A DNA stretch of 64,000 nucleotides from positions 2,621-66,620 of the forward strand of contig MGDU01000010.1 of assembly GCA_001790815.1 (NCBI GenBank), in the 5' to 3' direction. The notes under the pieces are model-generated. The model did no database searches. It saw nothing but the letters and a program-made list of their open reading frames with translations, and had not been told where the DNA came from. The position numbers and the translations under genes were made by a program. Source of the DNA: Candidatus Uhrbacteria bacterium RIFCSPHIGHO2_02_FULL_46_47 (GTDB lineage: Bacteria; Patescibacteriota; Patescibacteriia; GWA2-47-26). Positions 13,029 through 55,438 of the stretch are shown piece after piece; position 1 is the first letter of the stretch; every line of letters starts with the position of its first letter.

Positions 13029-13056
13029 GAATGTAAAATGAAAAATGTAAAATTAA
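13029..13056 (+). promoter_or_regulatory. family G element: tandem TGTAAAAT extended -10-like boxes overlapping an MKNVKL start codon
   Basis: gaaTGTAAAATgaaaaaTGTAAAATta; copies at 15334, 20651, 39928, 55365. Confidence 0.45.
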
Positions 13057-13940
13057 AAATTATTGTTGTCCTAATGGTGCTCGCGCCTAATTTTGCGTAC
13101 GGAGCGGAGTTTTATTTTGGCACACAATCAAAAGAAATCGGCGTGGGGCAATTGGGAGAGGTCGGAGTGTTTTTAAATACTGATGATGCGCAGATTAACG
13201 CGATTGAAGGAAAAATTATATTTTCCGATAGTGTGACGGTGAAAGAAATTCGCGAAGGCGGTTCAATGATTAGTTTGTGGGTTGAGAATCCGTCACTGAG
13301 TGATGATGACCCTAATCACTCAGTGACGATCATGTTTAGCGGGATTATCCCCGGCGGCTACACCGGTAATCGCGGATATTTGTTCTCGATAATATTTGAA
13401 AAAACTAAAGTCGGCGATGTGAAAATTGAAGTGAATGATGCGCGCGCATTGCTTAATGACGGGCAGGGGACATCGACTGAAGTACGCGTATCGCCACTCA
13501 CGCTTGCGGTCGTAGAAAAAACTGGGGCGCCGGGATATTTGCCGCCTTATGATAATGAGCCGCCGGAATCATTTGTGCCGGAGATTGCGCAAGATCCGAA
13601 TTTATTTGATGGAAAATGGTTTGTTACATTTGCCACGCAGGATAAAATTTCTGGAATTGATCGTTATGAAATCGCATTTGGTTCACTTGGCAATTTCGTT
13701 CGTGTTGAAAGTCCGTTTGTCTTGCCACTCTGGAAACAGCTGGCTGGTGGAATTGTTAGGATTAAAGCCATTGATCGCGCTTCAAACGTTCGCATTGAAA
13801 CTTTACCAATCGCCATACCTTTGCCCTGGTATGAAGATTATCGGATTTGGGGTATAATCCTAGGAGGAGCTATTATTGTATACCTCATATTTCGTCTATG
13901 GAAGCAAAAACAAATAAAACACACAAAAAAACACGAATAG
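13038..13940 (+). CDS. membrane-anchored protein with cohesin-like domain
   Basis: Signal MKNVKLKIIVVLMVLAPNFAYG. Domain GVGQLGEVGVFLNTDDAQINAIEGKIIFSDSVTVKEI...VKIEVNDARALLNDG fits the cohesin beta-sandwich pattern; C-terminal TM (IWGIILGGAIIVYLIF). Contains the in-frame family D palindrome (PSLSDDDPNHSVT). Confidence 0.5.
   Translation: MKNVKLKIIVVLMVLAPNFAYGAEFYFGTQSKEIGVGQLGEVGVFLNTDDAQINAIEGKIIFSDSVTVKEIREGGSMISLWVENPSLSDDDPNHSVTIMFSGIIPGGYTGNRGYLFSIIFEKTKVGDVKIEVNDARALLNDGQGTSTEVRVSPLTLAVVEKTGAPGYLPPYDNEPPESFVPEIAQDPNLFDGKWFVTFATQDKISGIDRYEIAFGSLGNFVRVESPFVLPLWKQLAGGIVRIKAIDRASNVRIETLPIAIPLPWYEDYRIWGIILGGAIIVYLIFRLWKQKQIKHTKKHE
13290..13328. repeat. palindromic insertion element, family D, in-frame in the cohesin-like gene
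   Basis: ccgtcactgagtgat-gatgaccctaa-atcactcagtgacg. Confidence 0.75.
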
Positions 13941-15331
13941 CAACACGAAAGTACACGAAACTTTTAGTGTTTTTTAGTTTATTACTCGTGCCTTTTAGTG
14001 TAGTAAAAGCGGCGCCGGCAAGTTTGTTTTTATCTCCGGCTTCCGGAACATACGGATTGAACCGTACGTTTTCGGTTGATATTGTAGTGGCAACTCCGGG
14101 TGAATCCATGAACGCAGTCCAAGGTACAGCGCGGTTTGACGCGGATCGCTTGGAAGTAGTTTCCTTAAATAAGGACGGATCAATTTTAAGTCTTTGGATT
14201 CAGGAGCCCAGGTTTTCTAATCGTGAGGGGACTGTAACATTTGAAGGGATACGGTTAAATCCCGGTTATCAAGGTACGGCGGGGAAATTGCTTACGGTCG
14301 TATTTAAAACCAGAGCGCTGGGAACCGCGAAACTGAATTTTTCATCCGCGTCAGTTTTGGCAAATGACGGCAAGGCAACCAATATCATTACGGCGCTGGG
14401 AACCGCGGCGTATCAAATCGTAGTGCCGGAGCTTGCGCCGGAGGAAATTGACGCGACAGAAGGCGTTTTGCGCGAAACTAATATTATTTCTCCCACCCAT
14501 AGTAATCCGGAAAAATGGTACGCGCTTCGGGCGGTTCAATTTGAATGGACGTTGCCTTCTTCGATTGATGGCGCATCCTTTGTCGTCAATCAAGAGCCGG
14601 ATACTACTGTGCGAGAAAAATCGTTCGGACGATTATCAAGTTATACCTACGAGGTTGCCGAGGACGGCCTATGGTATTTTCACCTGCGCCTGCGCAATCC
14701 CAAGGGATGGGGACTGACCAGCCATTTCAAATTCCAGGTTGATACCGTTGCGCCCGAGCCATTTACTATCTCGTTTATTGATGGCAGAGAAACTGATCTG
14801 CCCCAGCCGCGGATTTTTTTCTTTGCCAATGATGCAGTTTCGGGAATTGAATATTATGAGGTAAAGGTAGATGAGGGCAGTTTTTTCAGAGTCGCCCCTG
14901 AGGAGCTTATGAGCGCGCCAGTATCTCTTCCCTCGCTTTCTCCCGGCATACATACAGCGTTTGTGTATGCCTATGATCGCGCTGGCAATGTTAGGAGTTC
15001 GGCTGAAGAATTTTCCGTTGTGGCGCCAAAAGCAACGCGTTCGGTTTTGCGCATTGGAAAAGTACAGGTGCCTTATTTTGCGGTTGTCGCAATCTTGATT
15101 GGATTTGCCCTTGCGCTTATTTTCATTTTGTTGCTAGCCTGGTGGCAATTCTTACGTTTTCGCAAAAAACTCAAAAAAGAAGCGCATGAGGTGGAAGAGG
15201 TTCTGCATAAATCTCTTGATCGGATACGCGAGGATGCCGGTAGAAGGTCTGGTAAGATTAAAAAAGACGCTGATGACGCGGAAAAGGCGGTGCGGAAAGA
15301 GATTGAGGATATTGAAAAGGAGGTGAAGTGA
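13898..15331 (+). CDS. membrane-anchored protein with cohesin-like domain (paralog of 13038 gene) and charged C-terminal tail
   Basis: Signal-anchor KLLVFFSLLLVPFSVVKA. Domain FSVDIVVATPGESMNAVQGTARFDADRLEVVSLNKDG..GKLLTVVFKTRALGTAKLNF; C-terminal TM (VVAILIGFALALIFILLLAWW) then a Lys/Glu-rich tail. Start uncertain (ORF track 13847; overlaps the upstream gene). Confidence 0.5.
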   Translation: MEAKTNKTHKKTRIATRKYTKLLVFFSLLLVPFSVVKAAPASLFLSPASGTYGLNRTFSVDIVVATPGESMNAVQGTARFDADRLEVVSLNKDGSILSLWIQEPRFSNREGTVTFEGIRLNPGYQGTAGKLLTVVFKTRALGTAKLNFSSASVLANDGKATNIITALGTAAYQIVVPELAPEEIDATEGVLRETNIISPTHSNPEKWYALRAVQFEWTLPSSIDGASFVVNQEPDTTVREKSFGRLSSYTYEVAEDGLWYFHLRLRNPKGWGLTSHFKFQVDTVAPEPFTISFIDGRETDLPQPRIFFFANDAVSGIEYYEVKVDEGSFFRVAPEELMSAPVSLPSLSPGIHTAFVYAYDRAGNVRSSAEEFSVVAPKATRSVLRIGKVQVPYFAVVAILIGFALALIFILLLAWWQFLRFRKKLKKEAHEVEEVLHKSLDRIREDAGRRSGKIKKDADDAEKAVRKEIEDIEKEVK

Positions 15332-15333
15332 CG

Positions 15334-15367
15334 GAATGTAAAATTAAAAATGTAAAATGAAAAATGA
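15334..15367 (+). promoter_or_regulatory. family G element (tandem TGTAAAAT boxes) at the murF start
   Basis: ggaaTGTAAAATtaaaaaTGTAAAATgaaaaatg; supplies the MKNE.. start. Confidence 0.45.
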
Positions 15368-16763
15368 GTGTATGAAGGAAGTAGTAATATCTATCCTCCA
15401 GGTATTTGCCAAGCTCATTTTGCAAAAATATAAACCCACTATTGTCGCTATAACCGGTTCGGTTGGAAAAACGTCAACCAAAGAGGCAATTTACGCGGTT
15501 CTTGCTTCAAAATTTTCCGTACGCGCGACGCCCAGAAATTATAATAATGAATTGGGCGTACCGCTGACTATAATTGGAGCAGGACTTAGCCCTGAGCGTG
15601 AAAGGGCTAAGTCCTTGTTTCTTGGAAAGTCACCTTTTCGCTGGTGTAGAGTATTTTGCAGAGCATTGTGGCAAATTATCATGCCTGCGCGCTATCCGGC
15701 AATATTAGTGCTGGAGATGGGAGCAGATCGGCCAAAAGACATACAAAAACTCGTAAAACTTGCTCCGCCAAAAATTGGGGTGGTAACTGCTATTGCGCCA
15801 GTGCATACTGAATTTTTTGGCGATGTGGAAAAAGTGGCGCGTGAAAAAAGGCGTCTTGTTGAAGCAGTGCCAAAGCAGGGGACAGTGGTATTAAATATAG
15901 ATGATGAAATGGTGCGTGAGTTTGCAAAGCATGCAAAAAGTACGGTTGTTGGTTATGGAATTGAGAGCAATGAGGCAGAAGTAAGGGCAGTTGAGGTGCA
16001 TGATGATATTGAAATAGGGGGAAGCCGAACCTCCGATGCTTCGGAGGTTCGGCTTCCAGACATTGAATTAGGCAGTATTCATTTCAAAATTATAACTGAC
16101 GGCTCTGCCGTGCCCGTGCATTTGCCTAGTGTGTTGGGCCACGCCCACGTGTACGCGGCGCTTGCCGCTTGCGCAGTGGGACGCGCGTTTGGAATGCACA
16201 TGGTTGAAATTTCCCGTGCGCTGTTAAATTATGCTCCGCCTCCCGGCCGCATGCGAATTATTGCTGGCATTAAAAATACGGTGATCATTGACGATACTTA
16301 CAATGCTTCTCCGCGGGCAACTGTAGCCGCCCTTGAAACACTTGGAGGGCTAAGCCCTTTTTCAAAATCAGGGCTTAGCCCTGTGCGTTACGCCGTGCTT
16401 GGCGATATGCTGGAGTTAGGGCCTTATACAGAATCCGGCCATCGCGAAGTGGGCCGCGTTGCGGCGCAAAATGCCGATGTAGTTATTGGCGTGGGTGTCA
16501 GTGCGCAATGGCTTGTTGATGAGGCAAATAAAACCCGTCTAAATTTACCCTCTGCTGAAGGAAATTTTGTCGGGCATTTGCATACCCATGACGAAGCCGA
16601 ACATTTTTTGCAGGAGCGAATACGGCCGGGCGATGTGATACTGATCAAAGGATCTCAAAGCATGCGCATGGAGAAGCTCGTCAAAGGTCTAATGGCTGAA
16701 CCTTTGCGCGCGGATGAATTATTATGCCGACAAGAAAAAGAATGGTTGACACGACAACACTAA
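15357..16763 (+). CDS. murF: Mur ligase family protein, MurF-like (UDP-MurNAc-pentapeptide synthetase)
   Basis: P-loop ITGSVGKTSTKE and MurF-type NNELGVPLT motif. The usual N-terminal domain is missing, and it carries two in-frame family B palindromes (GLSPERERAKSL; GGLSPFSKSGLSP). Confidence 0.65.
   Translation: MKNECMKEVVISILQVFAKLILQKYKPTIVAITGSVGKTSTKEAIYAVLASKFSVRATPRNYNNELGVPLTIIGAGLSPERERAKSLFLGKSPFRWCRVFCRALWQIIMPARYPAILVLEMGADRPKDIQKLVKLAPPKIGVVTAIAPVHTEFFGDVEKVAREKRRLVEAVPKQGTVVLNIDDEMVREFAKHAKSTVVGYGIESNEAEVRAVEVHDDIEIGGSRTSDASEVRLPDIELGSIHFKIITDGSAVPVHLPSVLGHAHVYAALAACAVGRAFGMHMVEISRALLNYAPPPGRMRIIAGIKNTVIIDDTYNASPRATVAALETLGGLSPFSKSGLSPVRYAVLGDMLELGPYTESGHREVGRVAAQNADVVIGVGVSAQWLVDEANKTRLNLPSAEGNFVGHLHTHDEAEHFLQERIRPGDVILIKGSQSMRMEKLVKGLMAEPLRADELLCRQEKEWLTRQH
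15581..15615. repeat. family B palindrome in-frame in murF
   Basis: aggacttagccct-gagcgtgaa-agggctaagtcct (12-bp perfect inverted repeat). Confidence 0.75.
16347..16383. repeat. family B palindrome pair in-frame in murF
   Basis: gggctaagccc..agggcttagccctg. Confidence 0.75.
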
Positions 16764-16795
16764 GTGATGTACAACACGCAGTGTTGTACGTGTTA

Positions 16796-16870
16796 GGCCC
16801 TATCGTCTAGTCCGGTCTAGGACATCTGCTTCTCAGGCAGAAGACCGGGGTTCAAATCCCCGTGGGGCTA
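16796..16870 (+). tRNA. tRNA-Glu (anticodon CUC)
   Basis: 75 nt: acceptor GGCCCTA/TGGGGCT (2 G-U), D-arm GTCTAG..GAC, anticodon stem TCTGC/GCAGA with loop TTCTCAG (U33, CTC, A37), T-arm CGGGG-TTCAAAT-CCCCG, discriminator A. CCA is not encoded. Confidence 0.75.
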
Positions 16871-16879
16871 TGGTATAAT
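16871..16879 (+). promoter_or_regulatory. extended -10 promoter (TGgTATAAT) immediately after the tRNA, for the 16909 gene
   Basis: Perfect TGnTATAAT 30 nt upstream of the ATG at 16909. Confidence 0.5.
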
Positions 16880-16908
16880 TAAACTATAATTCAATAATTA
16901 CTAATTTT

Positions 16909-19672: not shown

Positions 19673-20644
19673 ATGTTGTCCAGAAAACAACTCTCCATTT
19701 CGATTATTTCCTCCTTACTGATTAGTGTGGGCGGGGCATTTGTGCTGGGAGGAGTGCAGGCGCAAGTAACCTGTACAACCGATGCGAATTGCGTGAGTCT
19801 TGGCCCGGAATTTCGCTGTGTGTCCAGTCGCTGTAATCTTCCGCCGCCGATTTGGAATGTGGATGGAACAGGACTGGCAAGTGGCGGTCAAAACGCGCAG
19901 ATTTTTTTAACCGGTAGCGCCGCCACGAATTCAGCGCGATTTGGAAATTTGCAAATTGGTTTTGGAAATCAAATTAACAATCTTGCAACAAGCGGTACTG
20001 CGCGCGAAGTTGCTGTACAATATCAAAGTGGCAATCAGGGGTTTACAGTGTATAATGGAGGTACAGAGCCACGTCTGCGTGTGGATAGCGCTGGCAATGT
20101 AAGCATTGCGCAAGGGCTGAATGTAGGAGGCGCGACTGGCGCAGGCGCAGGGGAAATTCTTGCATCAGGCAATATCCAAAGTACAGCCGGTATGATTCGC
20201 GGAAATTTTGTGGCTAGTGATGGGACAGTTTGCGCAAGCGGACAAATTCTTCAGCGCAGTGGCGCCGCCTGGGTGTGCGCAGCGCTTGCCGGGCCATGCA
20301 ATGGCGCGGTGTATGAGCAACCTTCGGCGCTTTCAAGGGACGGCAATCGCGGAGGATATTTGAGCGCCCGTATTGAATGTCCTCCTGCAATGCATATCTG
20401 CACAACATCGGAGATTCTTGAAAGCATACAATGCGGCGCGTTTTCTGGAAATGATACCAACGGAGGAGCGCCGATGTGGATTAACAATCTTGCGCCATCT
20501 CTTCCAACGCCGACCAATGACTGTGGAGGTTGGACAACAAATGCAAGCGCCTCTGTAGGAGTGGTGTATACTTATAATGCGGCCGGAGGAGTGGCCGGCA
20601 CTGCCGGATGCAATAGTGTACTTAAATTCGCCTGTTGTCAATGA
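19673..20644 (+). CDS. secreted Cys-rich fibre-like protein, paralog 1 (conserved C-terminal ..SEILESIQCG..NDCGGW..FACCQ domain)
   Basis: Signal peptide, then a Cys-rich N-terminus and Gly/Ala/Asn repeats. The C-terminal about 110 aa are shared with the 20667 and 22271 proteins (HxCTTSEILESIxCG, NDCxGW, ACCQ end). Start at the Met after the promoter (ORF track GTG 19640). Confidence 0.6.
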   Translation: MLSRKQLSISIISSLLISVGGAFVLGGVQAQVTCTTDANCVSLGPEFRCVSSRCNLPPPIWNVDGTGLASGGQNAQIFLTGSAATNSARFGNLQIGFGNQINNLATSGTAREVAVQYQSGNQGFTVYNGGTEPRLRVDSAGNVSIAQGLNVGGATGAGAGEILASGNIQSTAGMIRGNFVASDGTVCASGQILQRSGAAWVCAALAGPCNGAVYEQPSALSRDGNRGGYLSARIECPPAMHICTTSEILESIQCGAFSGNDTNGGAPMWINNLAPSLPTPTNDCGGWTTNASASVGVVYTYNAAGGVAGTAGCNSVLKFACCQ

Positions 20645-20650
20645 TATGAC

Positions 20651-20687
20651 AAATGTAAAATTCAAAATGCAAAATGTAAAATTATTG
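20651..20687 (+). promoter_or_regulatory. family G element (tandem TGTAAAAT boxes) at the start of paralog 2
   Basis: aaaTGTAAAATtcaaaatgcaaaaTGTAAAATtattg; gives the MQNVKLLLL start. Confidence 0.45.
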
Positions 20688-22268
20688 TTACTGTTTGGAG
20701 CATTTTTAATTTCAGCGTCTTCAGCGCAGGCTCAAGTCAGTTATTGCGCGCCGGGAACAACTGCCTGCTCGCAAGGATGTACACTTGGCGTTAATTGTAC
20801 CAGTTGCTGGAGCGCGCCGACATGTACGATTACTGGGCAAACCGCGCCCACTTGTGGATCATGTCAGTGTCCATCTGGCCAGATTGTTTGTGGAAGCGCG
20901 TGTCAGCTTCCGGCCGCAACTTCTGGCCAACCGTGCGATGCTGGGCAGGGGGCTGGATCAGGAACGTTTGATAGTTGTGGAGTATGTCAGGCAAATGCGC
21001 CGCGCTATGCTACCCGGCAATACTCATTTCCGGGCACTGCGGAAGACGGATATATTAATATCAAAGGAAATCTTCGCACTTCTTCTGATATGTATCTTAC
21101 TTCTGGCAAAGCAATTCGGGTTGACGGAAGCGGTGCAACACCTACTATATTGAATATCGGAAATTTTACCGGCACAGGCGGGGTAAATGTGACTATCCTT
21201 GGCACACTTGCCCTTGATGCGCTTACCGCTGATCGCGTAACTGGAGATGAGCTTTGCATTGGCGTGGATTGCCGCACCAGTTGGCCTGTGGCAGAGGGAG
21301 GGGGACTAACTGGAAGCGGCACTGCCAACCAAGTGGCATTTTTCACCAGCGCATCAAACCTTGATTCTGATGCTAATCTTTTTTGGGATAACATAAATAA
21401 GCGGCTTGGCATTGGCACTGCCACTACCCCAGGCAGTACGCTTACGGTTCGACGCTCTGCCGCCGGAGTCGCGTTTGCGGTGCGCAATACCGGTGATAAC
21501 GCTAACACATTCGCGATTACTGACACCGGATTACTTACTGTGGGCGTTGTGCCGTGGGCGCAGTTACGCGACATTCCTTCCGCATGCGCATCTGGCAAGT
21601 TTGTTATAGATATTGAAAGCGGTACTTGCGCTTTGCCAAGCTCCGCGGCTGAATCCGACCCAGTTTACCTGGCATGGTATAATAGCGCTAACCCCGGTAT
21701 CTCCAATTTAAAAGTTGTCGGTGGCGGAGCTTTTGGCGGGTATACGCCGGATGCAACATGGAAGATAACCACGCCAAACATTTACATTGGTGATCCGGCA
21801 GTAGGTGGTACAATCATCGGCGCAGGTTCTGGCCAAAGCGCCGGAGATATTACCACGGATGGAAATCTTGTAGTAAAAGGTTGTTTTGGGGCAATTTATC
21901 GCGGGGGAACATTGAGTACATATCAAGGAAATGTAAGTTATACAGATCCGGTATTGGGAACTTTGAACGGCTATAAAGCCGTGAATGAAATTTGCAAAGA
22001 TTCTGCGGGTATATTAAGTGGAAGCCATGTCTGCAGTGTGCAAGAAATTTTGGAAAGCATCAAATGCGGCGCAGCACTTCCGGGAACTGGCATTGTATGG
22101 GTGCAAGATGGCCCTCCTGGATTTACGGCGAACGTAAACGATTGTATTGGATGGACTTCCGCGGCTGGCGACTCTTATGGACGATACTGGGCGTTTGACG
22201 CAAATGGCGGCCAAGCATGGGTGCAACCTTGCAATGGTTTAGCCCGCGCGTTTGCTTGTTGCAAATAA
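20667..22268 (+). CDS. secreted Cys-rich fibre-like protein, paralog 2
   Basis: Signal MQNVKLLLLFGAFLISASSAQA and Cys-rich module (CAPGTTACSQGCTLGVNCTSCW..). Fibre-like repeats (IKGNLRTSSDMYLTSGKAIRVDGSG; IGTATTPGSTLTV) and conserved C-terminal domain ending FACCK. Confidence 0.65.
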   Translation: MQNVKLLLLFGAFLISASSAQAQVSYCAPGTTACSQGCTLGVNCTSCWSAPTCTITGQTAPTCGSCQCPSGQIVCGSACQLPAATSGQPCDAGQGAGSGTFDSCGVCQANAPRYATRQYSFPGTAEDGYINIKGNLRTSSDMYLTSGKAIRVDGSGATPTILNIGNFTGTGGVNVTILGTLALDALTADRVTGDELCIGVDCRTSWPVAEGGGLTGSGTANQVAFFTSASNLDSDANLFWDNINKRLGIGTATTPGSTLTVRRSAAGVAFAVRNTGDNANTFAITDTGLLTVGVVPWAQLRDIPSACASGKFVIDIESGTCALPSSAAESDPVYLAWYNSANPGISNLKVVGGGAFGGYTPDATWKITTPNIYIGDPAVGGTIIGAGSGQSAGDITTDGNLVVKGCFGAIYRGGTLSTYQGNVSYTDPVLGTLNGYKAVNEICKDSAGILSGSHVCSVQEILESIKCGAALPGTGIVWVQDGPPGFTANVNDCIGWTSAAGDSYGRYWAFDANGGQAWVQPCNGLARAFACCK

Positions 22269-26980: not shown

Positions 26981-27628
26981 ATGGCGCAGCGTTTAAAGAA
27001 TTCAAAGCAAAAGTCCGCGAAATCGCAATCCAATGCCAGCCGCGCATCTAGGAGTCGTATGCTATCATCTGCCCGTGTGTATCTTCAGGATTTTGCGCAC
27101 GAGTTCTCGGTTTTTACCGGTGCGATATCAGGACGGCATCCTATGGGTTTTGCTGAGTACGAAGATAAGTTGGTCGCGCAAGAGGCGCGTGAGCGCAAAG
27201 CGCGACTTTACGAATTAAGGCGGCGCAAATGGATTGAAACAAAAAAGATAGGGGAGCGCTTGCTTGTGCGGCTTACAAAACAGGGCTGGCAACGCGCCCT
27301 TCGCGACCAAATTCGCTGTACTTCCGTAAAATGTAAAGACGGAATTTGCATTGTGGTTTTTGATGTGCCGGAATCCGAGCGACATGTTCGCGATGCCCTG
27401 CGCGAGATTTTGCAAAGTTGTAATTTTACAATGCTGCAAAAAAGCGTGTGGGTGAGCCGCAAAGATATTATCAAGCCGCTTTGCGCGCTTTTGCAGGGCG
27501 CGAAGCTTGAGCGCTGGGTTCGCATATTGGTTGGCAAAGAGCTTACAAGTTCATTTCTTAGGCGCACTATTACGCGCGCTCAAGCATCCACCGCATCCGC
27601 GATTGCAACAAAAAAGTCACGATCGTGA
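26981..27628 (+). CDS. winged-helix + Cas2-like domain protein (PaaX-like architecture?), paralog 1
   Basis: The C-terminal GICIVVFDVPESERHVRDALREILQSCNFTMLQKSVWV matches the Cas2 beta1-alpha1..QxSV core including the conserved Asp. The N-terminal half is Lys/Arg-rich with a wHTH-like wing (KKIGERLLVRLTKQGWQ). Confidence 0.6.
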   Translation: MAQRLKNSKQKSAKSQSNASRASRSRMLSSARVYLQDFAHEFSVFTGAISGRHPMGFAEYEDKLVAQEARERKARLYELRRRKWIETKKIGERLLVRLTKQGWQRALRDQIRCTSVKCKDGICIVVFDVPESERHVRDALREILQSCNFTMLQKSVWVSRKDIIKPLCALLQGAKLERWVRILVGKELTSSFLRRTITRAQASTASAIATKKSRS

Positions 27629-31066: not shown

Positions 31067-31175
31067 GTAGTCGCCGCTCTTTAGGCGGCGCGCAGGCTAA
31101 AGACCTGCGGCTACATATGGCACAAGTAGTCGCCGCTCTTTAGGCGGCGCGCAGGCTAAAGACCTGCGGCTACAT
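31067..31175. repeat. two tandem 60-bp copies of the family E REP/BIME-like element
   Basis: gtagtcGCCGCtctttagGCGGCgcGCAGGctaaagaCCTGCggctacatatggcacaag x2; the second copy ends 2 nt before the ATG at 31176. Confidence 0.8.
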
Positions 31176-31652
31176 ATGGCACAAGAAGAAAAACCAAAAA
31201 TAGTCCCAACTGAACAACCGCCGGAAATAGAAAAAATTCCTGAAGCGCCAAAAGAGGCGCCTGTCCTTGAGGTTCCAATGGAACGTCCGCCTGCGGAAAA
31301 AGAATTGCCGGCAAAAGCGCCGCCGCCAATTGCGCCGGCAGTGTTGCCGCCGGCAGTACCAGCAGATCCAGTGCTTAAGCAAATTGAAACAATCCTTGCG
31401 GAGGATTTGGAAGAGGTTTATGCGCAACTTCCGCCAGAGCTTAAGCCAAAGTTTAAGGTCAAGGGCGAGGAAGTCGCGAGCGCAATTCGCACTATGATGG
31501 CAACTGCCAAGATTAAAGCGCGCAAAGTATTAAAGCTCATTGCGCAGTGGCTCAAAATTATTCCGGGTGTGAACAAATTTTTTCTGGAACAAGAAGCCGC
31601 GATCAAAGCGCAGAAAATTATGGCTGTCGCGCAGGAGGAGAAGGAAGTATGA
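31176..31652 (+). CDS. Pro/Ala/Glu/Lys-rich protein, hypothetical
   Basis: 158 aa; a low-complexity PEAPKE/PPAV N-terminal half, then a helical C-terminal half. Confidence 0.5.
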   Translation: MAQEEKPKIVPTEQPPEIEKIPEAPKEAPVLEVPMERPPAEKELPAKAPPPIAPAVLPPAVPADPVLKQIETILAEDLEEVYAQLPPELKPKFKVKGEEVASAIRTMMATAKIKARKVLKLIAQWLKIIPGVNKFFLEQEAAIKAQKIMAVAQEEKEV

Positions 31653-31732
31653 TGCCAATATACGAATTTCATGCCAATCTACAAATTGCAAATTCGTATT
31701 TGTAGATTTGAATAAGATTTGTAGATTTGCAT
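31652..31732. repeat. family F intergenic element (ATGCCAATCTACGAATTTCATGCCAATCTACAAAT...ATTTGTAGATTTGAATAAGATTTGTAGATTTGCAT)
   Basis: Contains four TTTGTAGATT/AATCTACAAA half-sites in inverted arrangement. Begins at the stop of the upstream gene and ends 8 nt before the next ATG; copies at 40973 and 48320. Confidence 0.75.
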
Positions 31733-31739
31733 TACATTT

Positions 31740-39900: not shown

Positions 39901-39927
39901 ATGTTATACTAAATGGGGAATCATATG

Positions 39928-39960
39928 AATGTAAAATGTAAAATGAAAAATGTAAAATTA
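39928..39960 (+). promoter_or_regulatory. family G element (three TGTAAAAT boxes) at the start of the 39943 gene
   Basis: gaaTGTAAAATGTAAAATgaaaaaTGTAAAATta. Confidence 0.45.
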
Positions 39961-40971
39961 TTGCGCCTCGCTCAGTGTGCATTTTTAATTTTTAATTTTA
40001 CATTTTTAATTCAATTTGCACAGGGCGGTGAATTTGAGGTTGATTTGGGACTGCGTTTCGAAGATATTTTGATAGTGCCAGCCTTACCTATTGCTGGACA
40101 AACTGCGCGTATATACGCGACCGTGCATAATTTTGGAACCAAAGATGCTTTAGGAAAAGTTTCATTTTATCAAGGGCCATTTCTTATTGGTCAGTTACAG
40201 ATTGTATCTGTTAAGGCGCAAGGATTTGCCGATGAAGTATTTATTGATTTTACGGTGCCGGACGGCCCATTTAATATCTTGGTCAAATTAAGTGAAATAT
40301 CTCCTGCCGACCAAAATTCAGGCAATGACGATACAGTGACTCCGCTTAAAGAACCGCTCCCGGATCAAGATCATGATGGGATTATTGATGAACGCGATAG
40401 TTGTATTTCAGTTGTAAATGCGGACCAAGCAGATCACGATGGAGATGGACGTGGAGATGCGTGTGATCCGGATTCTGATAATGATGGACTCGCAGATATT
40501 GACGAAGTCGCGCGCGGATTAAATCCGTTGAATCCCGATACTGATAATGATGGTATGATTGACAGTAAAGATCCGCATCCTCTCAAAGCCGATCCTTCGC
40601 CGCTAGCAAAGAAAGATACGCCGGTAAAAGTCGCAAAAGTTACAGAGACGCAAAAATCACAGTCTGGCGGTGCGGCAGTGGAGGGTGCAAAAAATGATAA
40701 TGCAGCTTCGGAAACTATGGTAGACACGCGCAGTACACCTGAGGCATCAGCTCCGCTTGCCACAGCAGTGCTGGATAAGGAAGATTCTGTACGCGCGGAA
40801 GAAGAATCAATTATTTCAGCTGAATACGCGACTATAATTACGCCGCAGACAAAAATTCCGAAAATACCGCGCGGAGGTTTTTCAAAGCTTTGGGTTGCAG
40901 CCGTATTTTCTACAATATTTGCAGGCGTATTTTCATTTTTAGCGCTGCGTATGAAAACTCCCAAAGAATGA
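39943..40971 (+). CDS. secreted membrane-anchored protein with thrombospondin type 3-like Ca-binding Asp repeats
   Basis: Signal MKNVKLLRLAQCAFLIF. Repeats DQDHDGIIDERD / DHDGDGRGDACDPDSDNDGLADIDE / DTDNDGMIDSKD; C-terminal TM (LWVAAVFSTIFAGVFSFLAL). Confidence 0.6.
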   Translation: MKNVKLLRLAQCAFLIFNFTFLIQFAQGGEFEVDLGLRFEDILIVPALPIAGQTARIYATVHNFGTKDALGKVSFYQGPFLIGQLQIVSVKAQGFADEVFIDFTVPDGPFNILVKLSEISPADQNSGNDDTVTPLKEPLPDQDHDGIIDERDSCISVVNADQADHDGDGRGDACDPDSDNDGLADIDEVARGLNPLNPDTDNDGMIDSKDPHPLKADPSPLAKKDTPVKVAKVTETQKSQSGGAAVEGAKNDNAASETMVDTRSTPEASAPLATAVLDKEDSVRAEEESIISAEYATIITPQTKIPKIPRGGFSKLWVAAVFSTIFAGVFSFLALRMKTPKE

Positions 40972-40972: not shown

Positions 40973-41053
40973 ATGCCAATCTACGAATTTCATGCAAATC
41001 TACAAATCGCGAATTTGTATTTGTAGATTTGAATAAGATTTGTAAATTTGCAT
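40973..41053. repeat. family F intergenic element, copy 2 (immediately upstream of murJ)
   Basis: atgccaatctacgaatttcatgcaaatctacaaatcgcgaatttgtatttgtagatttgaataagatttgtaaatttgcat. Confidence 0.75.
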
Positions 41054-41057
41054 TGTC

Positions 41058-42779: not shown

Positions 42780-43736
42780 ATGCAATCACGGCCAAGGCGC
42801 ACTCTCTATCAAGATAGGACATGGCTTAAGGTGCGGCTAAAGCGCGGCTTGACCGCGCCTCAGATTGCAAATCAGGTCAAAGTCAGCACGCCTACCATAA
42901 CACGATGGATCGCGATTCATGACCTTGTTGGATGTTCCTTGCGCGCGATTTGTCGCAATTATCTGAACAGACGCGCGCGGGCAACCTATGCCAATAGAGC
43001 GTGGCTTCGCGCAGAACTTGCGGCAGAACACACCTACAAAGAGATTGCCAAAAAGGTAGGCGTTTATCCGCTTACCATTGCCAATTGGGCCTTGCGGTTC
43101 AAGTTGGCTAATGGGCACCTTTCTCATACTGCCACTTGTACCTACGCCAATCAGAAGTGGCTGGCCGCCCAGATTGCGCGCGGGTTTCTTGATAGGCAAA
43201 TTGCTCACGAAACCGGCGTAACAGCTCACACTATAGAATATTGGCGCAAGCAGTTTGGCATCAGGTGCCCGCCGCGGCAGCGACCACCGAGAAATCTGAA
43301 GGAGCGGCGTGCTTTTGGGACGTGGCTTGCGCCGCGCCTGCATCGCTTAGCGCTCCCGGAGACACAAGGCGCTGCCCTTTGCGCGTATTACGCAGTAAAC
43401 GGCACTTTCTGTGAGCAGAAGCAATTGGCACAAGAGCAGGGAGTGACTCCGCATGGTATTGATTATCGCAGAACCAAAGCACTTGCGGTCATACTGGATA
43501 CCTTTGGCATGGGACAGCTCGCAAGATTTCCGGAGATAGTTAAGCGACGAAAAACACTTCAAGCGTTTGTGCCAAAGAAACAAACACACACGCTACGCAC
43601 ATATCGTGATAAGGCGTGGCTTAGGGCGCGCGTTGCGCGCAACTTATCCGACAAGCAAATCGCGAGCGAGGTTGGAAACACTAGTTTTACAACTATCGCG
43701 CATTGGCGTCGATCTTTTGGGATCACAAGGAGGTAG
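42780..43736 (+). CDS. protein built from tandem helix-turn-helix repeats (5-6 units, about 46 aa each), IS3-OrfA-like HTH
   Basis: Repeats of the form Y.N..WL...LA....K(E/Q)IA...GV...TI..W...FGI (e.g. YANRAWLRAELAAEHTYKEIAKKVGVYPLTIANWALRF). No transposase catalytic domain follows. Confidence 0.55.
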   Translation: MQSRPRRTLYQDRTWLKVRLKRGLTAPQIANQVKVSTPTITRWIAIHDLVGCSLRAICRNYLNRRARATYANRAWLRAELAAEHTYKEIAKKVGVYPLTIANWALRFKLANGHLSHTATCTYANQKWLAAQIARGFLDRQIAHETGVTAHTIEYWRKQFGIRCPPRQRPPRNLKERRAFGTWLAPRLHRLALPETQGAALCAYYAVNGTFCEQKQLAQEQGVTPHGIDYRRTKALAVILDTFGMGQLARFPEIVKRRKTLQAFVPKKQTHTLRTYRDKAWLRARVARNLSDKQIASEVGNTSFTTIAHWRRSFGITRR

Positions 43737-44366: not shown

Positions 44367-46337
44367 ATGGAACAATCGAAAATTCGGAATTTTTGCATTA
44401 TCGCCCATATTGATCATGGAAAGTCCACGCTCGCGGATCGGTTTTTGGAATTGACCGGAACAGTAGAAAAGCGGCAGATGAAAGAACAGCTTTTGGATCA
44501 GATGGATATTGAACGCGAGCGCGGCATCACTATCAAACTCGCTCCAGTCCGCATGAACTACGTACTACATACTACCCCCTACGTACTTAACCTAATTGAC
44601 ACCCCCGGCCACGTTGACTTCACTTACGAAGTTTCGCGTTCACTGGCGGCAGTGGAAGGCGCGATTTTACTGGTTGATGCAACTCAAGGCGTGCAAGCCC
44701 AAACTATTGGTAATCTTTATCTTGCGCTAGAGCAAAATCTCACAATTATTCCAGTGGTAAATAAAATTGATTTGCCCAGTGCCGATGTTGCTAAGACAAA
44801 GGCAGAACTCATGCATTTAATCGGATGCAAAGAAGAGGAGATTTTGGCAGTTTCCGGACGAACTGGTGAAGGTGTGCCGGAATTGTTGGAGGCGATTGTG
44901 GAACGCGTGCCAGCCCCTCACCCCAACCCTCTCCCACAAGGGGAGAGGGAGTTACAGAAATACCCCACTCCCTTAATGGGAGGGGATAAAGGGGGGGGTG
45001 TTTCGCTTCGGGCCTTAATCTTTGACTCCATTTATGACACGTATCGCGGAGTGGTGGCGTATGTGCGGGTATTTGACGGTGAAATAAAAAAGGGCGAGAA
45101 AATCATTTTCATGGCCACCAAGGCGCAAAGCGAAGCGCTGGAAGTTGGATTTTTCAAACCAAAATTTGTTCCCTCCGATTCACTTGGAGCCGGTGAGATC
45201 GGTTATATTGTGACTGGGCTTAAAGATATTGCCGGATGCCGCGTTGGAGATACTATTACGGGCTACACGCTACACGCTACAAGCTACACGGTTGAACCCC
45301 TTCCCGGCTATAAAGAAGTAAAACCCATGGTGTTTGCCGGAATTTTTCCAAAAGTAGGGGATGAGTATTCGCAACTGCGCGAGGCCATGGGAAAACTCAA
45401 ACTCAATGACGGCGCGCTTAGCTATGAGCCGGAAAAATCCACTGCGCTGGGATTTGGATTCCGCTGCGGATTTTTAGGACTTTTACATTTGGAAATTGTA
45501 GAAGAGCGTTTGCGTCGCGAGCATAACGTTGAAGTAATTACAACAGTTCCATCTGTGGCGTATCGGGTTAGCAAAACTGATGGTCAAGTGATGATAATCA
45601 AAGGCGCGCAGGAATTGCCTGATCAAAATTATATTCAAAAAATTGAAGAGCCGTGGGTCAAAATTGATGTGGTGGTGCCAAAAAAATACATTGGCGGAGT
45701 GATGCAGTTGGTACAAGAGAAAAGGGGAGTGTATGTGAATACGGAGTACATGCTACCCTCACCCCAACCCTCTCCCATAAGGGGCGAGGGAGAAAATCAG
45801 GTTCCCTCTCCCTCCATGGGAGAGGGAGATTCGGCCATGGACGAATCGGGTGAGGGGCGCGTAATTTTGCATTACGAACTCCCGCTTGCCTCAATTCTTG
45901 TGGATTTTTATGATAAACTCAAAAGCGTTTCTTCTGGTTATGCCTCGCTCAATTATGAATTGACCAAATACAAGGAAGCAGATGTGGTGCGACTTGATAT
46001 TTTAGTGGCTGAAGATCAGGTTGAGGCGCTGGCCACGGTTGTTTATAGCGATAGCGCGCAAGACTCGGGTCGTAAAATTGTGGAGGCGCTTAAAAAAACT
46101 TTGCCGCGCCAGCAATTTGAAATTAAAATCCAGGCCGCGCTGGGCGGAAAAATTATTGCTTCCGAACGCATTTCACCTTTGCGCAAAGATGTGACGGCCA
46201 AGCTTTATGGCGGCGATGTGACGCGCAAAATGAAACTTTTGGAAAAACAGAAAAAAGGCAAGAAAAAAATGGCGGCCATGGGCCACGGGGCAGTGGATAT
46301 TCCACCAGCGGCCTACCTTGCGGTACTGAAACGTTGA
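44367..46337 (+). CDS. lepA: elongation factor 4 (LepA) with two in-frame palindromic insertions
   Basis: MEQSKIRNFCIIAHIDHGKSTLADR (G1), DTPGHVDF (G3), NKID (G4). Family C insertions encode PAPHPNPLPQGERELQKYPTPLMGGDKGGGVS and LPSPQPSPIRGEGENQVPSPSMGEGD... Start taken at the homologous Met (ORF track 44355). Confidence 0.9.
   Translation: MEQSKIRNFCIIAHIDHGKSTLADRFLELTGTVEKRQMKEQLLDQMDIERERGITIKLAPVRMNYVLHTTPYVLNLIDTPGHVDFTYEVSRSLAAVEGAILLVDATQGVQAQTIGNLYLALEQNLTIIPVVNKIDLPSADVAKTKAELMHLIGCKEEEILAVSGRTGEGVPELLEAIVERVPAPHPNPLPQGERELQKYPTPLMGGDKGGGVSLRALIFDSIYDTYRGVVAYVRVFDGEIKKGEKIIFMATKAQSEALEVGFFKPKFVPSDSLGAGEIGYIVTGLKDIAGCRVGDTITGYTLHATSYTVEPLPGYKEVKPMVFAGIFPKVGDEYSQLREAMGKLKLNDGALSYEPEKSTALGFGFRCGFLGLLHLEIVEERLRREHNVEVITTVPSVAYRVSKTDGQVMIIKGAQELPDQNYIQKIEEPWVKIDVVVPKKYIGGVMQLVQEKRGVYVNTEYMLPSPQPSPIRGEGENQVPSPSMGEGDSAMDESGEGRVILHYELPLASILVDFYDKLKSVSSGYASLNYELTKYKEADVVRLDILVAEDQVEALATVVYSDSAQDSGRKIVEALKKTLPRQQFEIKIQAALGGKIIASERISPLRKDVTAKLYGGDVTRKMKLLEKQKKGKKKMAAMGHGAVDIPPAAYLAVLKR
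44914..45000. repeat. family C palindromic element in-frame in lepA (1 of 2)
   Basis: cccctcaccccaaccctctcccacaaggggagagggag...gggaggggataaaggggggggtg. Confidence 0.8.
45756..45857. repeat. family C palindromic element in-frame in lepA (2 of 2)
   Basis: ccctcaccccaaccctctcccataaggggcgagggag...ctccatgggagagggag...gggtgagggg. Confidence 0.8.
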
Positions 46338-46458
46338 TGATATAGTATTCAACCATTATGAAACGCAAGACATTTCAGCGTGCCTGGACAGTAGTCGTAA
46401 TCATTATGATTGCGGCGATGATTTTATTTACCATCGTGCCGTATCTGTTCTAGTGAAC

Positions 46459-46481
46459 GCCGGCTAAAGACCGGCGACTAC
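46459..46481. repeat. family E REP-like half element (single hairpin + GACTAC) 8 nt upstream of recJ
   Basis: GCCGGctaaagaCCGGCgactac. Confidence 0.65.
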
Positions 46482-46488
46482 ATTTAAT

Positions 46489-48319: not shown

Positions 48320-48408
48320 ATGCCAATATACGAATTTCATGCCAATCTACAAATAACAAATAATTCATTCGCAATTCGTAGATTAGCATAAGATTTGTAG
48401 ATTTGCAT
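48320..48408. repeat. family F intergenic element, copy 3 (immediately upstream of rnhA)
   Basis: atgccaatatacgaatttcatgccaatctacaaataacaaataattcattcgcaattcgtagattagcataagatttgtagatttgcat. Confidence 0.75.
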
Positions 48409-48416
48409 CATATTTT

Positions 48417-48866: not shown

Positions 48867-48875
48867 TGCTATAAT
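48867..48875 (+). promoter_or_regulatory. extended -10 promoter (TGcTATAAT) 6 nt upstream of the ATG at 48882 (near-leaderless)
   Basis: TGCTATAATacaggcATG. Confidence 0.5.
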
Positions 48876-52290: not shown

Positions 52291-52317
52291 GTCTGTAAGA
52301 TCTGTCGCACTTATAAT

Positions 52318-52917: not shown

Positions 52918-52922
52918 TTTAT

Positions 52923-53612: not shown

Positions 53613-53615
53613 GCT

Positions 53616-55364
53616 ATGGCTGTTCAAACTACTTTTAAAAATGAATTTCTTGATTTTTTAGTTAGAGAAAAGGTATTGAGCACAGAAAAAGTCGGTGAGT
53701 TGGAGTCACGTGCTAAACAAGAAGGCAGTACAGTTGAGCAAGTATTGACAAAGGATAGAATTATTTCTGAAGAGGAACTTACTTCAAAAAAGGCAAAATT
53801 TTTCGGTCTTCCCTATATTGATTTGACCGGAATTAAAATTGATCAGGCAACTTTGGGACTTATTCCAAAAGCAGTGGCTGAAAACTATCGTGTAATCGCG
53901 TTTGATCGCGATGCCGCGCAGCTTAATGTTGCGATTTACGATCCTCGCAATTTTCAAGCCATGGCTGCCCTTGATGTGCTGGCCGTGAAAAGTAATCTGC
54001 GCATCAAATATTATCTTACCTCGCTTAGTAGTTTTACCTCCGCAGTAAAGGTATACGCGGAGCTGACAAAAGAGGTCGCGGAGGTTATTGAGGTTGTGCG
54101 CAGAGAAAAGGTACGTGAGGCGCCAAAAGAAGAGGCGGCAGTGCCGGTTGAGGAGGTAATTAAGGGCGCTCCGGTTTCCCGCATCGTTTCAGTTATAATG
54201 CGGCATGCTTATGAAGGAAAGGCCTCCGATATTCATATAGAACCTTATCGCGGTGAGACGCGCGTGCGTTATCGCATTGATGGAGTGCTAAAAACTTCGC
54301 TGGCTCTTCCGGAAGAATTGCATTCCGCAATCGTCTCGCGCGTGAAAGTGCTGGCGAATTTAAAGCTGGATGAGACGCGCATTCCGCAAGACGGCCGCAT
54401 TACCGAGGAGATTGGCGGAAGGCCGATTGATTTTCGCGTTTCAACTTTGCCTCTTCAGGAAGGCAAAGAAAAAGTGGTGATGAGGATTTTGTCCACCGAA
54501 CGCACCCCGACTTTGGAAGAATTGGGATTTCATCCGGAACATATTAAAATCATAGACAGCAACATAAAAAAGCCGCACGGACTTTTGCTTATTTCCGGGC
54601 CAACCGGAGCCGGAAAATCAACCACCCTTTACGCGGTTTTAAGCATGCTTAATCGCGAGGGAATAAATATCATTACTTTGGAAGATCCGATTGAGTATTT
54701 TATTGCCGGCATTAATCAATCGCAAATTCGCCCGGAGGTTGGATATACTTTCGCAACCGGTCTGCGCTCAATTTTGCGGCAAGATCCGAATATAATTATG
54801 GTTGGCGAGATCCGCGACGCGGAAACCGGAGAACTTGCGGTGCATGCCGCGCTTACCGGACATTTGCTTTTGACCACTATTCACACCAACGACGCCCTGG
54901 GGGTAGTGCCGCGGCTGATTGATTTGAAGGCCGAGCCGTTTTTGCTCGCGGCAACATTTAACGTGGCAATCGCGCAGAGACTCGCGCGCAAAATTTGCCC
55001 GGATTGCAAAGGGCCGGCAGAAGTGCCTTTAAATGTGGTAGAACAGATGCGCAGTGAACTGCGCGCTACCCCGACGCGCTTTGTGCCATCTGGGCTTGAC
55101 GTAAATGGTCCCTTGACATTTTATCGTGGTCAAGGATGTCCAAAGTGTGGTACACTTGGATATAAGGGGCGCGTTGCGGTTGCCGAGATTTTGCAGGGAA
55201 CTGTGAATTTGAATCGATTGATTGCGATTGGATTTCCACAGGCCGAAGTTGTCGCGGAAACGCAAAGTCAAGGGATGATTACAATGAAGCAGGACGCGCT
55301 TCTAAAAGCCATTCAAGGATTTACCACTATTGAAGAAGTGATGCGTATTAGCAAGGAACAATAA
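53616..55364 (+). CDS. pilB: type IV pilus assembly ATPase PilB (GspE family)
   Basis: GspE_N domain, Walker A LLISGPTGAGKSTTLYAVL, ITLEDPIEY, Walker B IMVGEIRD, tetracysteine CPDCKG..CPKCG. Confidence 0.9.
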   Translation: MAVQTTFKNEFLDFLVREKVLSTEKVGELESRAKQEGSTVEQVLTKDRIISEEELTSKKAKFFGLPYIDLTGIKIDQATLGLIPKAVAENYRVIAFDRDAAQLNVAIYDPRNFQAMAALDVLAVKSNLRIKYYLTSLSSFTSAVKVYAELTKEVAEVIEVVRREKVREAPKEEAAVPVEEVIKGAPVSRIVSVIMRHAYEGKASDIHIEPYRGETRVRYRIDGVLKTSLALPEELHSAIVSRVKVLANLKLDETRIPQDGRITEEIGGRPIDFRVSTLPLQEGKEKVVMRILSTERTPTLEELGFHPEHIKIIDSNIKKPHGLLLISGPTGAGKSTTLYAVLSMLNREGINIITLEDPIEYFIAGINQSQIRPEVGYTFATGLRSILRQDPNIIMVGEIRDAETGELAVHAALTGHLLLTTIHTNDALGVVPRLIDLKAEPFLLAATFNVAIAQRLARKICPDCKGPAEVPLNVVEQMRSELRATPTRFVPSGLDVNGPLTFYRGQGCPKCGTLGYKGRVAVAEILQGTVNLNRLIAIGFPQAEVVAETQSQGMITMKQDALLKAIQGFTTIEEVMRISKEQ

Positions 55365-55438
55365 GAATGTAAAATGTAGAATGTAAAATGAAAAATGAAA
55401 ACGTAATTTTGCATTTTAAATTTTAAATTTTACATTTA
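55365..55438. promoter_or_regulatory. family G element (TGTAAAAT boxes in both orientations) between pilB and the receiver gene
   Basis: agaaTGTAAAATgtagaaTGTAAAATgaaaaatgaaaacgtaattttgcattttaaATTTTACAtt; contains a decayed MKNENV mini-ORF. Confidence 0.45.

Follow-up and report, generated by a model that had tools for sequence, protein, structure and literature searches.

What brings the same short piece of DNA to the junctions of unrelated bacterial genes, and does it help to express them? The question is raised by a 64,000-nucleotide (nt) stretch of Candidatus Uhrbacteria bacterium RIFCSPHIGHO2_02_FULL_46_47 (assembly GCA_001790815.1, contig MGDU01000010.1, positions 2,621 to 66,620; here called the window), in which a short A-rich repeat, designated family G, recurs at five loci. 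An earlier sequence-only reading described it as a portable promoter fused to a leaderless start codon and shared by secreted-protein genes and murF. The analysis reported here points elsewhere: family G is probably a lineage-specific dispersed element built of heptanucleotide repeats, which forms a hairpin when complete, lies in transcribed gene junctions and has partly been absorbed as signal-peptide coding sequence.

The repeat and its five copies

Copy counts of family G refer to the 64-kb window. The sequence AATGTAAAAT occurs 13 times against 0.34 expected, a number reached in none of 100 shuffles, and the 18-mer ATGAAAAATGTAAAATTA, with up to two mismatches, is matched seven times against 0.01 expected; the earlier observation that five loci carry the same DNA is thus real. 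The AATGTAAAAT copies are grouped in five clusters, all on the + strand, and extra reverse-complement copies (inverted boxes) are found at 39995-40004 and 55427-55436. Tandem Repeats Finder resolved all five loci into head-to-tail arrays of 4.3-6.0 copies of a 7-nt unit, the units being AATGTAA (TAAAATG rotated), AATGAAA, AATTAAA and AATGCAA. The loci are indeed related, but what they have in common is this heptamer array and not the 30-mer by which they had been linked, which with up to three mismatches matches only two of the five. When aligned, the copies agree in a core some 33 nt long, GAATGTAAAATnnAAAATGnAAAATGnAAAAT, with the 5′ boundary GAATGTA in four of five copies and the 3′ sequence AAAATTATTG in three.

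All five arrays lie at gene junctions, and the three that are overlapped by open reading frames (ORFs) are overlapped by 5′ ends only. At four loci a same-strand stop codon stands 2-5 nt before the array, and at the fifth (39928) 27 nt before it. In having at least three head-to-tail 7-nt units and a predominantly intergenic location the arrays agree with heptanucleotide simple sequence repeats (SSRs). Since the same DNA stands at unrelated gene junctions, it behaves as a dispersed repeat. The copies and the features around them are as follows.

13030-13060, + strand: copy 1 array, GAATGTA AAATGAA AAATGTA AAATTAA AAATTAT
13023-13103, + strand: signal-peptide coding region of a secreted protein of 300/305 amino acids (aa), (MIECK)MKNVKLKIIVVLMVLAPNFAYG
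15335-15367, + strand: copy 2 array, GAATGTA AAATTAA AAATGTA AAATGAA AAATGAG
20651-20682, + strand: copy 3 array, AAATGTA AAATTCA AAATGCA AAATGTA AAATTAT
20646-20732, + strand: signal-peptide coding region of fibre paralogue 2, (MTNVKFK)MQNVKLLLLFGAFLISASSAQA
39902-39910, + strand: extended −10 promoter TGTTATACT, 2 nt past the HD-gene stop and upstream of the array
39928-40011, + strand: copy 4, intact hairpin; A-rich arm 39928-39958 (AATGTAA x4.4), T-rich arm 39981-40011 (ATTTTTA x4.4)
39925-40026, + strand: signal-peptide coding region of the TSP3-repeat protein, (MNVKCK)MKNVKLLRLAQCAFLIFNFTFLIQFAQG
55366-55437, + strand: copy 5, intact hairpin; A-arm 55366-55406, T-arm 55405-55437
55388-55426, + strand: mini-ORF of 12 aa, MKNENVILHFKF, inside the copy 5 hairpin, read from the sequence
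55462-55836, + strand: receiver-domain gene, likely start MKILIVEDD, with an AAGGA Shine-Dalgarno (SD) sequence 11 nt upstream

Copy 1 begins 3 nt past the TGA stop (13024-13026) of an fn3/dockerin gene and has no intact inverted arm, although a vestige, CCTAATTTTGCGTAC, is seen at about 13086-13100. Copy 2 begins 3 nt past a TGA stop (15329-15331) and ends 4 nt before the ATG of murF at 15372, and the TGA stop of fibre paralogue 1 (20642-20644) lies about 6 nt upstream of copy 3. Copy 5 is placed between pilB (stop 55362-55364) and the receiver gene, and is untranslated except for the mini-ORF. This mini-ORF, preceded by three ATG-stop pairs (ATGTAA, ATGTAG, ATGTAA), and the inverted box behind it were both confirmed as first described.

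In its complete form the element sets an A-rich array of about five units against an inverted T-rich array of equal period, giving an AU hairpin of about 85 nt. RNA folding yielded −24.5 kcal/mol (z −4.14) for the hairpin at 39928-40011 and −19.7 kcal/mol (z −4.83) for that at 55366-55437; both have stems of roughly 30 pairs, nearly all A-U. The arrays at 13030, 15335 and 20651 are without structure, with z about 0 (−0.01 for copy 1, whose array is unpaired).

Gene starts and signal peptides

ORFs open within four of the arrays, with MKNVKLK (13038), MQNVKLL (20667), MKNVKLL (39943) and MKNECMKE (15357). The common start MKNVKL attributed to the secreted proteins is thus correct at 13038 and 39943, and fibre paralogue 2 (20667) reads MQNVKL instead. 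As far as the sequence can tell, three non-homologous secreted proteins start in or just before an array, which would supply the start and first codons, because no other start yields a signal peptide. The claim that non-homologous genes have their first codons in common holds for these three genes and fails for murF, where the array is untranslated.

The signal peptides were read directly from the sequence. All three show the basic n-region, hydrophobic h-region and small-residue cleavage motif of Sec signal peptides (MKNVKLK-IIVVLMVLAP-NFAYG; MQNVK-LLLLFGAFLI-SASSAQA; MKNVKLLR-LAQCAFLIFNFTFLI-QFAQG), and the mature starts align with orthologues and paralogues bearing signal peptides of their own. 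In the TSP3-repeat protein the Lys/Asn n-region is derived from the A-arm of the hairpin and the h-region, FLIFNFTFLI, from the T-arm. Its mature part begins GEFEVDLGLR as in the orthologues, which are 45-56% identical and have the mature N-terminus (A/G)xFExDLGLR in common while their signal peptides are unrelated in most cases; the array-derived signal peptide is lineage-specific. The orthologue at locus L215 has an h-region, FYILHSTFYIL, that is encoded by (ATTCTAC)4. In fibre paralogue 2 only the n-region is array-derived, and the h- and c-regions align with paralogue 1 (GAFVLGGVQAQV). The N-terminus of a further protein, P0003, reads MNVKFK.

Gene callers put the starts of the secreted proteins further upstream, at 13023, 20646 (or 20616) and 39913/39925. 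For the 300/305-aa protein the candidates are the callers' choice, ATG 13023, which forms an ATGA overlap with the upstream stop, and ATG 13038. These findings bear on annotation, as four start codons are called differently by different pipelines (TSP3 protein of 342, 348 or 352 aa; MurF of 463 or 468 aa; 13023 versus 13038).

MurF had also been thought to start within the element (MKNE..). The orthologues for which the N-terminus was read (P0128-P0149) start with MKxxL..ILQ, either at the equivalent of ATG 15372 or a few residues from it, with the exception of one longer call, and one pipeline calls the MurF of the window from this ATG (463 aa). The real start is ATG 15372, and the copy 2 array is therefore an untranslated spacer. 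The receiver gene likely starts at 55462, judging from MKILIVEDD and the AAGGA before it, with the copy 5 hairpin upstream and untranslated. True starts downstream of the arrays, leaving the repeated DNA untranslated, had been foreseen as an outcome that would speak against a start module; they were found for murF and the receiver gene but not for the three secreted proteins.

None of the in-array starts has an SD sequence. Since only about 8 of 40 genes in the window have one and most are without, an SD-less translation enhancer was rejected as a distinctive feature of the arrays.

These observations can be joined in the following way. Family G would arise and grow by replication slippage, as proposed for heptanucleotide SSRs as a class, and we infer both this origin and its dispersal. 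The arrays would be transcribed from the upstream gene or from a TGnTATAAT-type promoter 5′ of the array. Since each unit carries an ATG, and the ATGAAA and ATGCAA variants open the frame, downstream ORFs may have captured the array. In the three secreted-protein genes the A-arm would then encode the n-region of a Sec signal peptide, Met-Lys-Asn-Val-Lys, and in the TSP3 gene the T-arm would likewise be coding, for a hydrophobic core rich in Phe, Leu and Ile. At murF and the receiver gene of the pilus operon the array would be an untranslated intercistronic spacer or hairpin.

Heptamer arrays in other genomes

A cross-phylum scan with AATGTAAAATNNNNAATGTAAAAT against one genome per species returned at least 120 loci with AATGTAA arrays, in Chitinophagaceae, Saprospiraceae, Flavobacteriales, Clostridia, Cloacimonadota, Ignavibacteria and several groups of the Candidate Phyla Radiation (CPR). 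Among the matches listed, about 90% of 141 AATGTAA arrays lie outside long ORFs, in 26 cases the A-rich strand has the end of a co-oriented upstream gene no more than 10 nt away, complementary heptamers occur within 200 nt in 34%, and in Chitinophagaceae the arms flank GC hairpins resembling bidirectional terminators. In Clostridia (L002, L008, L040, L085) a hairpin that looks conserved and resembles an intrinsic terminator, gaaaACTCCnnnnGGAGTtttt, stands behind AATGTAA/AATGAAG arrays, which suggests that these arrays sit in 3′ flanks.

In a repeat-unbiased sample of 80 CPR pilB loci from metagenomes (514 kb) tandem repeats most often had period 7: it accounted for 104 rows, compared with 53 of period 8 and 34 of period 6. 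With the arrays of the window included, 66 of 76 arrays of at least 2.9 copies (87%) lie outside long ORFs and about 14 inverted pairs were found, with units that are specific to a lineage, such as TTACGAA, GATCTAG, TTAGAAT and AAATTCT. Arrays occupy 28 of the 189 intergenic spacers (15%) of the CPR pilus loci. Heptamer-type hairpins with different units stand at the pilB-receiver junction in L131, L134, L144, L147, L158 and L163, and L127 and other closer pilB relatives show no more than a short AT palindrome, with an ...ATCCA flank in common with the window.

The pilus operon on the CPR metagenome contig L147 has such hairpins, about 130 nt long and with 9-10 heptamer units per arm, at nearly all its junctions, and the unit differs from one junction to the next:

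1294-1428: hairpin
1948-2076: hairpin
2865-2993: hairpin
4722-4811: hairpin

In the literature searched, neither AATGTAA arrays nor CPR hairpins with heptamer arms were described.

Insertion context and stability

At one locus the setting of the array has visibly been rearranged. Window positions 2-157 encode the C-terminus (last 51 codons) of the penicillin-binding protein (PBP) PBP2/FtsI, 85% identical to the protein of L216. In two relatives (L216, L217) the PBP gene is directly followed by murF; in the window the two are 15.2 kb apart. The first gene of this lineage-specific block is a RAYT/IS200-like Y1 transposase and its right edge is the array c15334; between them lie surface-protein genes, including a giant protein of 3207 aa and the fn3/dockerin protein. 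The last unit of the array, AAATGAGTGTATG, resembles the ancestral PBP-murF junction, AAATAGTGCGATATATG, and the array may either have arrived with the insert or have grown where the new junction formed.

No target-site duplication is visible at the borders of copies 4 and 5, and a metagenome scan for pilB found neither a relative closer than 65% outside the same population nor a clean empty site for copy 5. Compared with miniature inverted-repeat transposable elements (MITEs), family G has inverted arms in two of its five copies, and the loci L214 and L127, which have no arrays, keep short similar flanks, fitting either in-situ growth or insertion.

The Y1/RAYT-like gene itself (158-904, region 158-960; PF01797, with NF047646 below cut-off) is flanked by another hairpin family, GGAAGCTCAGCTTCC, with palindromes at 171, 353, 379, 908 and 930 and two more in the DNA ligase gene region (62242-62282). 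A repetitive extragenic palindromic (REP) element mobilised by the local RAYT-like gene was rejected as an identity for family G: the flanking hairpins are of the GGAAGCTCAGCTTCC family, and GTAG is found in one unit only, in copy 5. An integron attC site was likewise rejected, as the R″/R′ cores are absent from the hairpin ends and no integrase was found among the window proteins scanned.

The stability of the arrays was assessed in 13 near-identical contigs from different samples and assemblies of the Candidatus Uhrbacteria population of the Rifle aquifer (GCA_001791415.1 and sister assemblies). The arrays c13029, c15334, c20650 and c55365 are unchanged in sequence and unit number in all 13, with divergence elsewhere of up to 0.18%, and no length change that would indicate copy-number polymorphism by slippage was seen among them. 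The arrays are thus not behaving as hypermutable contingency loci. At the divergent orthologous loci (L214, L215) unit and length differ.

Hairpins as possible RNA-level elements

The hairpins may have effects at the RNA level through processing, stability, start-codon occlusion or ATG-TAA coupling. If this were the essence of family G, the complete hairpins would be intercistronic elements (an RNase III site, 3′ stabiliser, partial terminator or start-codon occluder) that set the relative expression of neighbours, for example of pilB versus the receiver gene and pilC. Such a role agrees with the dispersed-repeat reading for two of the five copies, and among the alternatives it survives best, even if we judge it rather unlikely. 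The stems are long and near-perfect (z −4.1 and −4.8), and candidate start codons lie within the stem at 39928. Hairpins of different sequence recur at the pilB-receiver junction in six other CPR lineages, and across phyla the 26 listed cases of an A-rich arm close to a co-oriented upstream stop, together with the terminator-like GC hairpins between the arms in Chitinophagaceae, point in the same direction. However, three of the five copies have no significant structure, and the close pilB relatives L127, L128, L130, L132 and L148 are without a hairpin. Because 15% of CPR spacers carry arrays, the recurrence at one junction may also be due to chance. The stems are nearly devoid of G-C pairs, a clear U-tract is missing and terminator scans found no terminator-like site at any array; an intrinsic (Rho-independent) terminator was rejected on the same grounds. 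With Rfam gathering thresholds only tRNA-Glu was detected, and no known RNA family at the arrays.

The promoter question

The sequence-only reading took each TGTAAAAT for an extended −10-like box of the form TGnTAnAAT, and the whole for a portable promoter fused to a leaderless ATG. In favour of such a role, TAAAAT matches TATAAT at five of six positions, including A-11 and T-7, and qualifies as a −10 hexamer (A at position 2, T at position 6, at least four of six matches). The boxes at 20656-20661 and 39932-39937 end 5 nt before an ORF ATG, and near-leaderless promoters do exist in this genome, with the −10 ending 6-8 nt from the ATG at 48867, 57141 and 58306. A new promoter would moreover be useful at the array 15334, since the 15.2-kb insertion parted murF from its ancestral upstream gene.

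The register of the boxes speaks against this. TGTAAAAT has 8 nt and its TG abuts TAAAAT, so that without a spacer base between them it cannot fit the 9-nt TGnTAnAAT; in ATGTAAAAT TG likewise adjoins TAAAAT and falls at −14/−13 instead of −15/−14. The evident promoters of the window are TGGTATAAT, TGCTATAAT or TGnTATACT, 6-30 nt before start codons, and about ten TGnTATAAT/TGnTATACT sites were found just 5′ of gene starts (for example at 1000, 16871, 19643, 27706, 48867, 51190, 57141 and 58306). TGn is in register in every convincing promoter of the window. A consensus promoter scan of the + strand returned background-level matches only (at most 9 of 12) at the arrays, and no usable −35.

Comparison with relatives points to a promoter of the TSP3 gene outside the array. 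The promoter TGTTATACT at 39902-39910 is conserved in position after the HD-gene stop, as TGGTATAGT in L214 and TGATATACT in L215. In L214 (56% protein identity, synteny DnaX-HD-TSP3) the AATGTAA array is missing and the signal peptide is an ordinary one, and L215 (about 54% identity) keeps the HD-to-TSP3 junction with a different heptamer. The transcription start site of the TSP3 gene is predicted near 39917. With a conserved canonical promoter upstream, the array at 39928 is downstream of the promoter and would be transcribed at this locus.

At other loci, ATG 13038 and its box overlap and a canonical box is missing upstream of it, MurF and the receiver protein start downstream of their arrays, and four arrays directly follow upstream stops within same-strand gene strings. 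Elsewhere AATGTAA arrays are found in either orientation, and some of the phyla that have them, including Bacteroidota, use promoters of another type, and other CPR lineages have non-promoter-like heptamers at the equivalent pilB junction. Neither the extended −10 assignment nor the portable promoter with a leaderless start could therefore be upheld, and we consider this explanation unlikely, although weak promoter activity of the arrays is possible.

Translational coupling, operators and phase variation as alternatives

The array (TAAAATG)n can also be read as a series of stop-A-start signals, with TAA in all three frames plus ATGTAA start-stop pairs. Stepwise re-initiation along it would bring ribosomes to the first open ATG without an SD sequence. 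The arrays follow an upstream stop closely at four of five loci, start-stop pairs precede the open ATG at 13031, 15336, 15350, 55367, 55374 and 55381, and the in-array starts all lack SD sequences. In several loci of the cross-phylum scan the first TAA of the array is apparently the upstream stop itself (distance −7), and a translational role has been proposed for the TAACTGA repeats (MacGregor 2015, PMC4679880). On the other hand, with SD sequences in so few of the window genes, no special coupling device is needed. The heptamers at equivalent junctions of other CPR lineages often contain neither ATG nor stop, and ORF starts inside arrays are rare elsewhere (4 of 141 among the matches listed). 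We judge coupling about as improbable as the promoter.

Less probable still is an operator array, in which murF and the genes for surface proteins and the pilus would be regulated jointly by a protein that binds the direct repeats. Identical 10-mers spaced 7, 14 and 21 bp stand in front of five genes, and heptad repeats are reported as operators elsewhere, for instance for ToxR at ctx and for SARP regulators. Candidate binders would be a response regulator and a multi-helix-turn-helix (HTH) protein encoded in the window. This protein (42780-43736, 318 aa) has 4-5 tandem HTH modules (Y-x-x-R-x-W-L ... Q-I-A ... T-I-x-x-W), and its binding of tandem DNA repeats is speculative. Against operators, the arrays lie downstream of the sole identifiable promoter and partly within coding sequence, and at orthologous loci the heptamer sequence is not conserved, in contrast to the genes and the promoter.

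A phase-variable contingency locus, where slippage in unit number switches surface proteins on and off, can be practically discounted: 7-nt units do shift the frame, three of five copies stand at surface-protein gene starts and 7-bp repeats at hmw of H. influenzae offer a precedent (PMC8262952, PMC12721329), but four arrays are identical in the 13 contigs and the units are imperfect, by which slippage is suppressed.

Weighing the dispersed-repeat reading

Several points weigh against our own interpretation of family G as a dispersed heptanucleotide element that was partly captured by genes. The common 5′ GAATGTA and 3′ AAAATTATTG suggest copying rather than independent slippage; yet neither a mechanism of dispersal nor a target-site duplication nor a clean empty site came to light. 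The match of TAAAAT at five of six positions, with a box 5 nt before the next ATG, makes leaderless initiation at 20667 and 39943 geometrically possible. Among the matches listed, a long ORF starts inside only 4 of 141 AATGTAA arrays, so that arrays fused to gene starts are a peculiarity of this lineage, one that class membership alone does not explain. Finally, transcription through the arrays and the use of in-array ATGs are themselves predictions from sequence.

With these reservations the analysis corrects an appealing but unsupported reading as a mobile promoter and provides a concrete example of how a simple-sequence or palindromic repeat can be recruited to encode signal peptides. In symbiotic CPR bacteria this may be one of the routes to new or renewed export signals on surface proteins, which evolve fast. 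The 7-nt-periodic arrays, often hairpins, in about 15% of CPR pilus-locus spacers point to an under-described feature of these compact genomes.

One may speculate further that heptamer-armed hairpins form a pervasive, undescribed intercistronic class in CPR and also in Bacteroidota and Clostridia, with lineage-specific units, acting on mRNA and serving as raw material for signal peptides. We put this forward tentatively, as a generalisation that is possible but doubtful. If true, family G would be an instance caught at several stages of exaptation, in which the A-rich arm becomes a Lys/Asn n-region and the T-rich arm a Phe/Leu/Ile core; positions such as pilB-receiver would be conserved, and the roles in mRNA would be processing, insulation or coupling.

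Other repeats and genes in the window

Slippage-type 7-nt repeats seem to shape coding sequence in the window too. The lepA gene contains (GCTACAC)x4, encoding a GYTLHATSYTV loop after the GDTIT motif, the prepilin peptidase gene an (ACTACYT)x4.4 array and a pilin-like gene a (TCATAAT)x4.3 array. Heptamer arrays inside conserved coding genes were recorded at the following positions.

45262-45290: heptamer array in a coding gene
58789-58819: heptamer array in a coding gene
59158-59187: heptamer array in a coding gene
44557-44575: heptamer array in a coding gene

A REP-like family, GTAGTCGCCG..CTTTAGG..CTAAAG..GGCTAC, is found at several junctions between genes as double stem-loops with GTAG/CTAC boundaries. 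At 31067-31185 a 59-bp unit is present as a perfect tandem duplicate that includes the start of the next gene, ATGGCACAAG.

11086-11135: REP-like GTAGTCGCCG family
11560-11608: REP-like GTAGTCGCCG family
31067-31185: REP-like GTAGTCGCCG family
46440-46482: REP-like GTAGTCGCCG family
57067-57130: REP-like GTAGTCGCCG family
about 57680-57740: REP-like GTAGTCGCCG family

A third hairpin family consists of tandem units of about 8 and 19 nt (atgccaatctacaaat ... atttgtagatttgcat) at 31650-31739, 40975-41057 and 48320-48416, and fills the spacers up to the start codons at 31740, 41058 (MurJ) and 48417 (RNase H). The relative L214 has a related CGAATTTA repeat upstream of MurJ, with sites at 3990-4011 and 11901-11937. 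Two proteins with PaaX_M/Cas2-like domains are encoded at 26981-27628 and just past 64000 (L121 20388-20957), with no CRISPR array noticed nearby.

Comparison with known systems

The hmw1A and hmw2A genes of H. influenzae are phase-variable by an upstream heptanucleotide SSR, and an RNA-level (RNase III) component has been described (PMC8262952, PMC12721329). In family G, too, tandem repeats of 7 bp stand in the 5′ part of surface-protein genes, but the hmw repeats are perfect, numerous and phase-variable, whereas family G is without length variation in the 13 contigs.

REP elements and bacterial interspersed mosaic elements (BIMEs) with their RAYTs, and the MITE-like Correia/NEMIS elements, are short dispersed junction palindromes that are co-transcribed, some with promoter-like hexamers or RNase III sites. 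Family G resembles them as a short dispersed palindromic junction repeat, and a RAYT-like Y1 gene is found in the window. Unlike them, it has no conserved GTAG head and no target-site duplication that could be found, and its arms are tandem heptamers. Rickettsia palindromic elements are inserted in frame in unrelated protein genes, where they form internal surface loops. Family G is also a palindromic dispersed repeat translated within unrelated proteins; it differs in being N-terminal, used in signal peptides, much shorter and built of SSRs.

TAACTGA repeats stand directly before SD-less start codons in Beggiatoaceae and are also found in Cyanobacteria and Bacteroidetes; 169 direct sets and one indirect repeat were counted, their function is unknown and a translational role was proposed (MacGregor 2015, PMC4679880). 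They resemble family G in having 2-6 copies per set, in forward orientation, before SD-less starts and unrelated downstream genes. In contrast, the unit of family G is AATGTAA/TAAAATG, two of its five copies are inverted pairs and three genes have their start codon within the array.

Among the long SSRs (LSSRs) of prokaryotes heptanucleotide repeats are the most abundant, possibly via polymerase slippage (Mrazek et al. 2007, as summarised in PMC4679880). Family G agrees with these prokaryotic LSSRs in its tandem 7-nt units, few copies, mostly intergenic location, sporadic phylogenetic spread and proposed origin by slippage. The short tandemly repeated repetitive (STRR) sequences of cyanobacteria are heptanucleotide SSRs of this class. 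Family G differs from the class in that its units are imperfect and strain-stable, and that they form inverted pairs which fold into hairpins and are partly translated.

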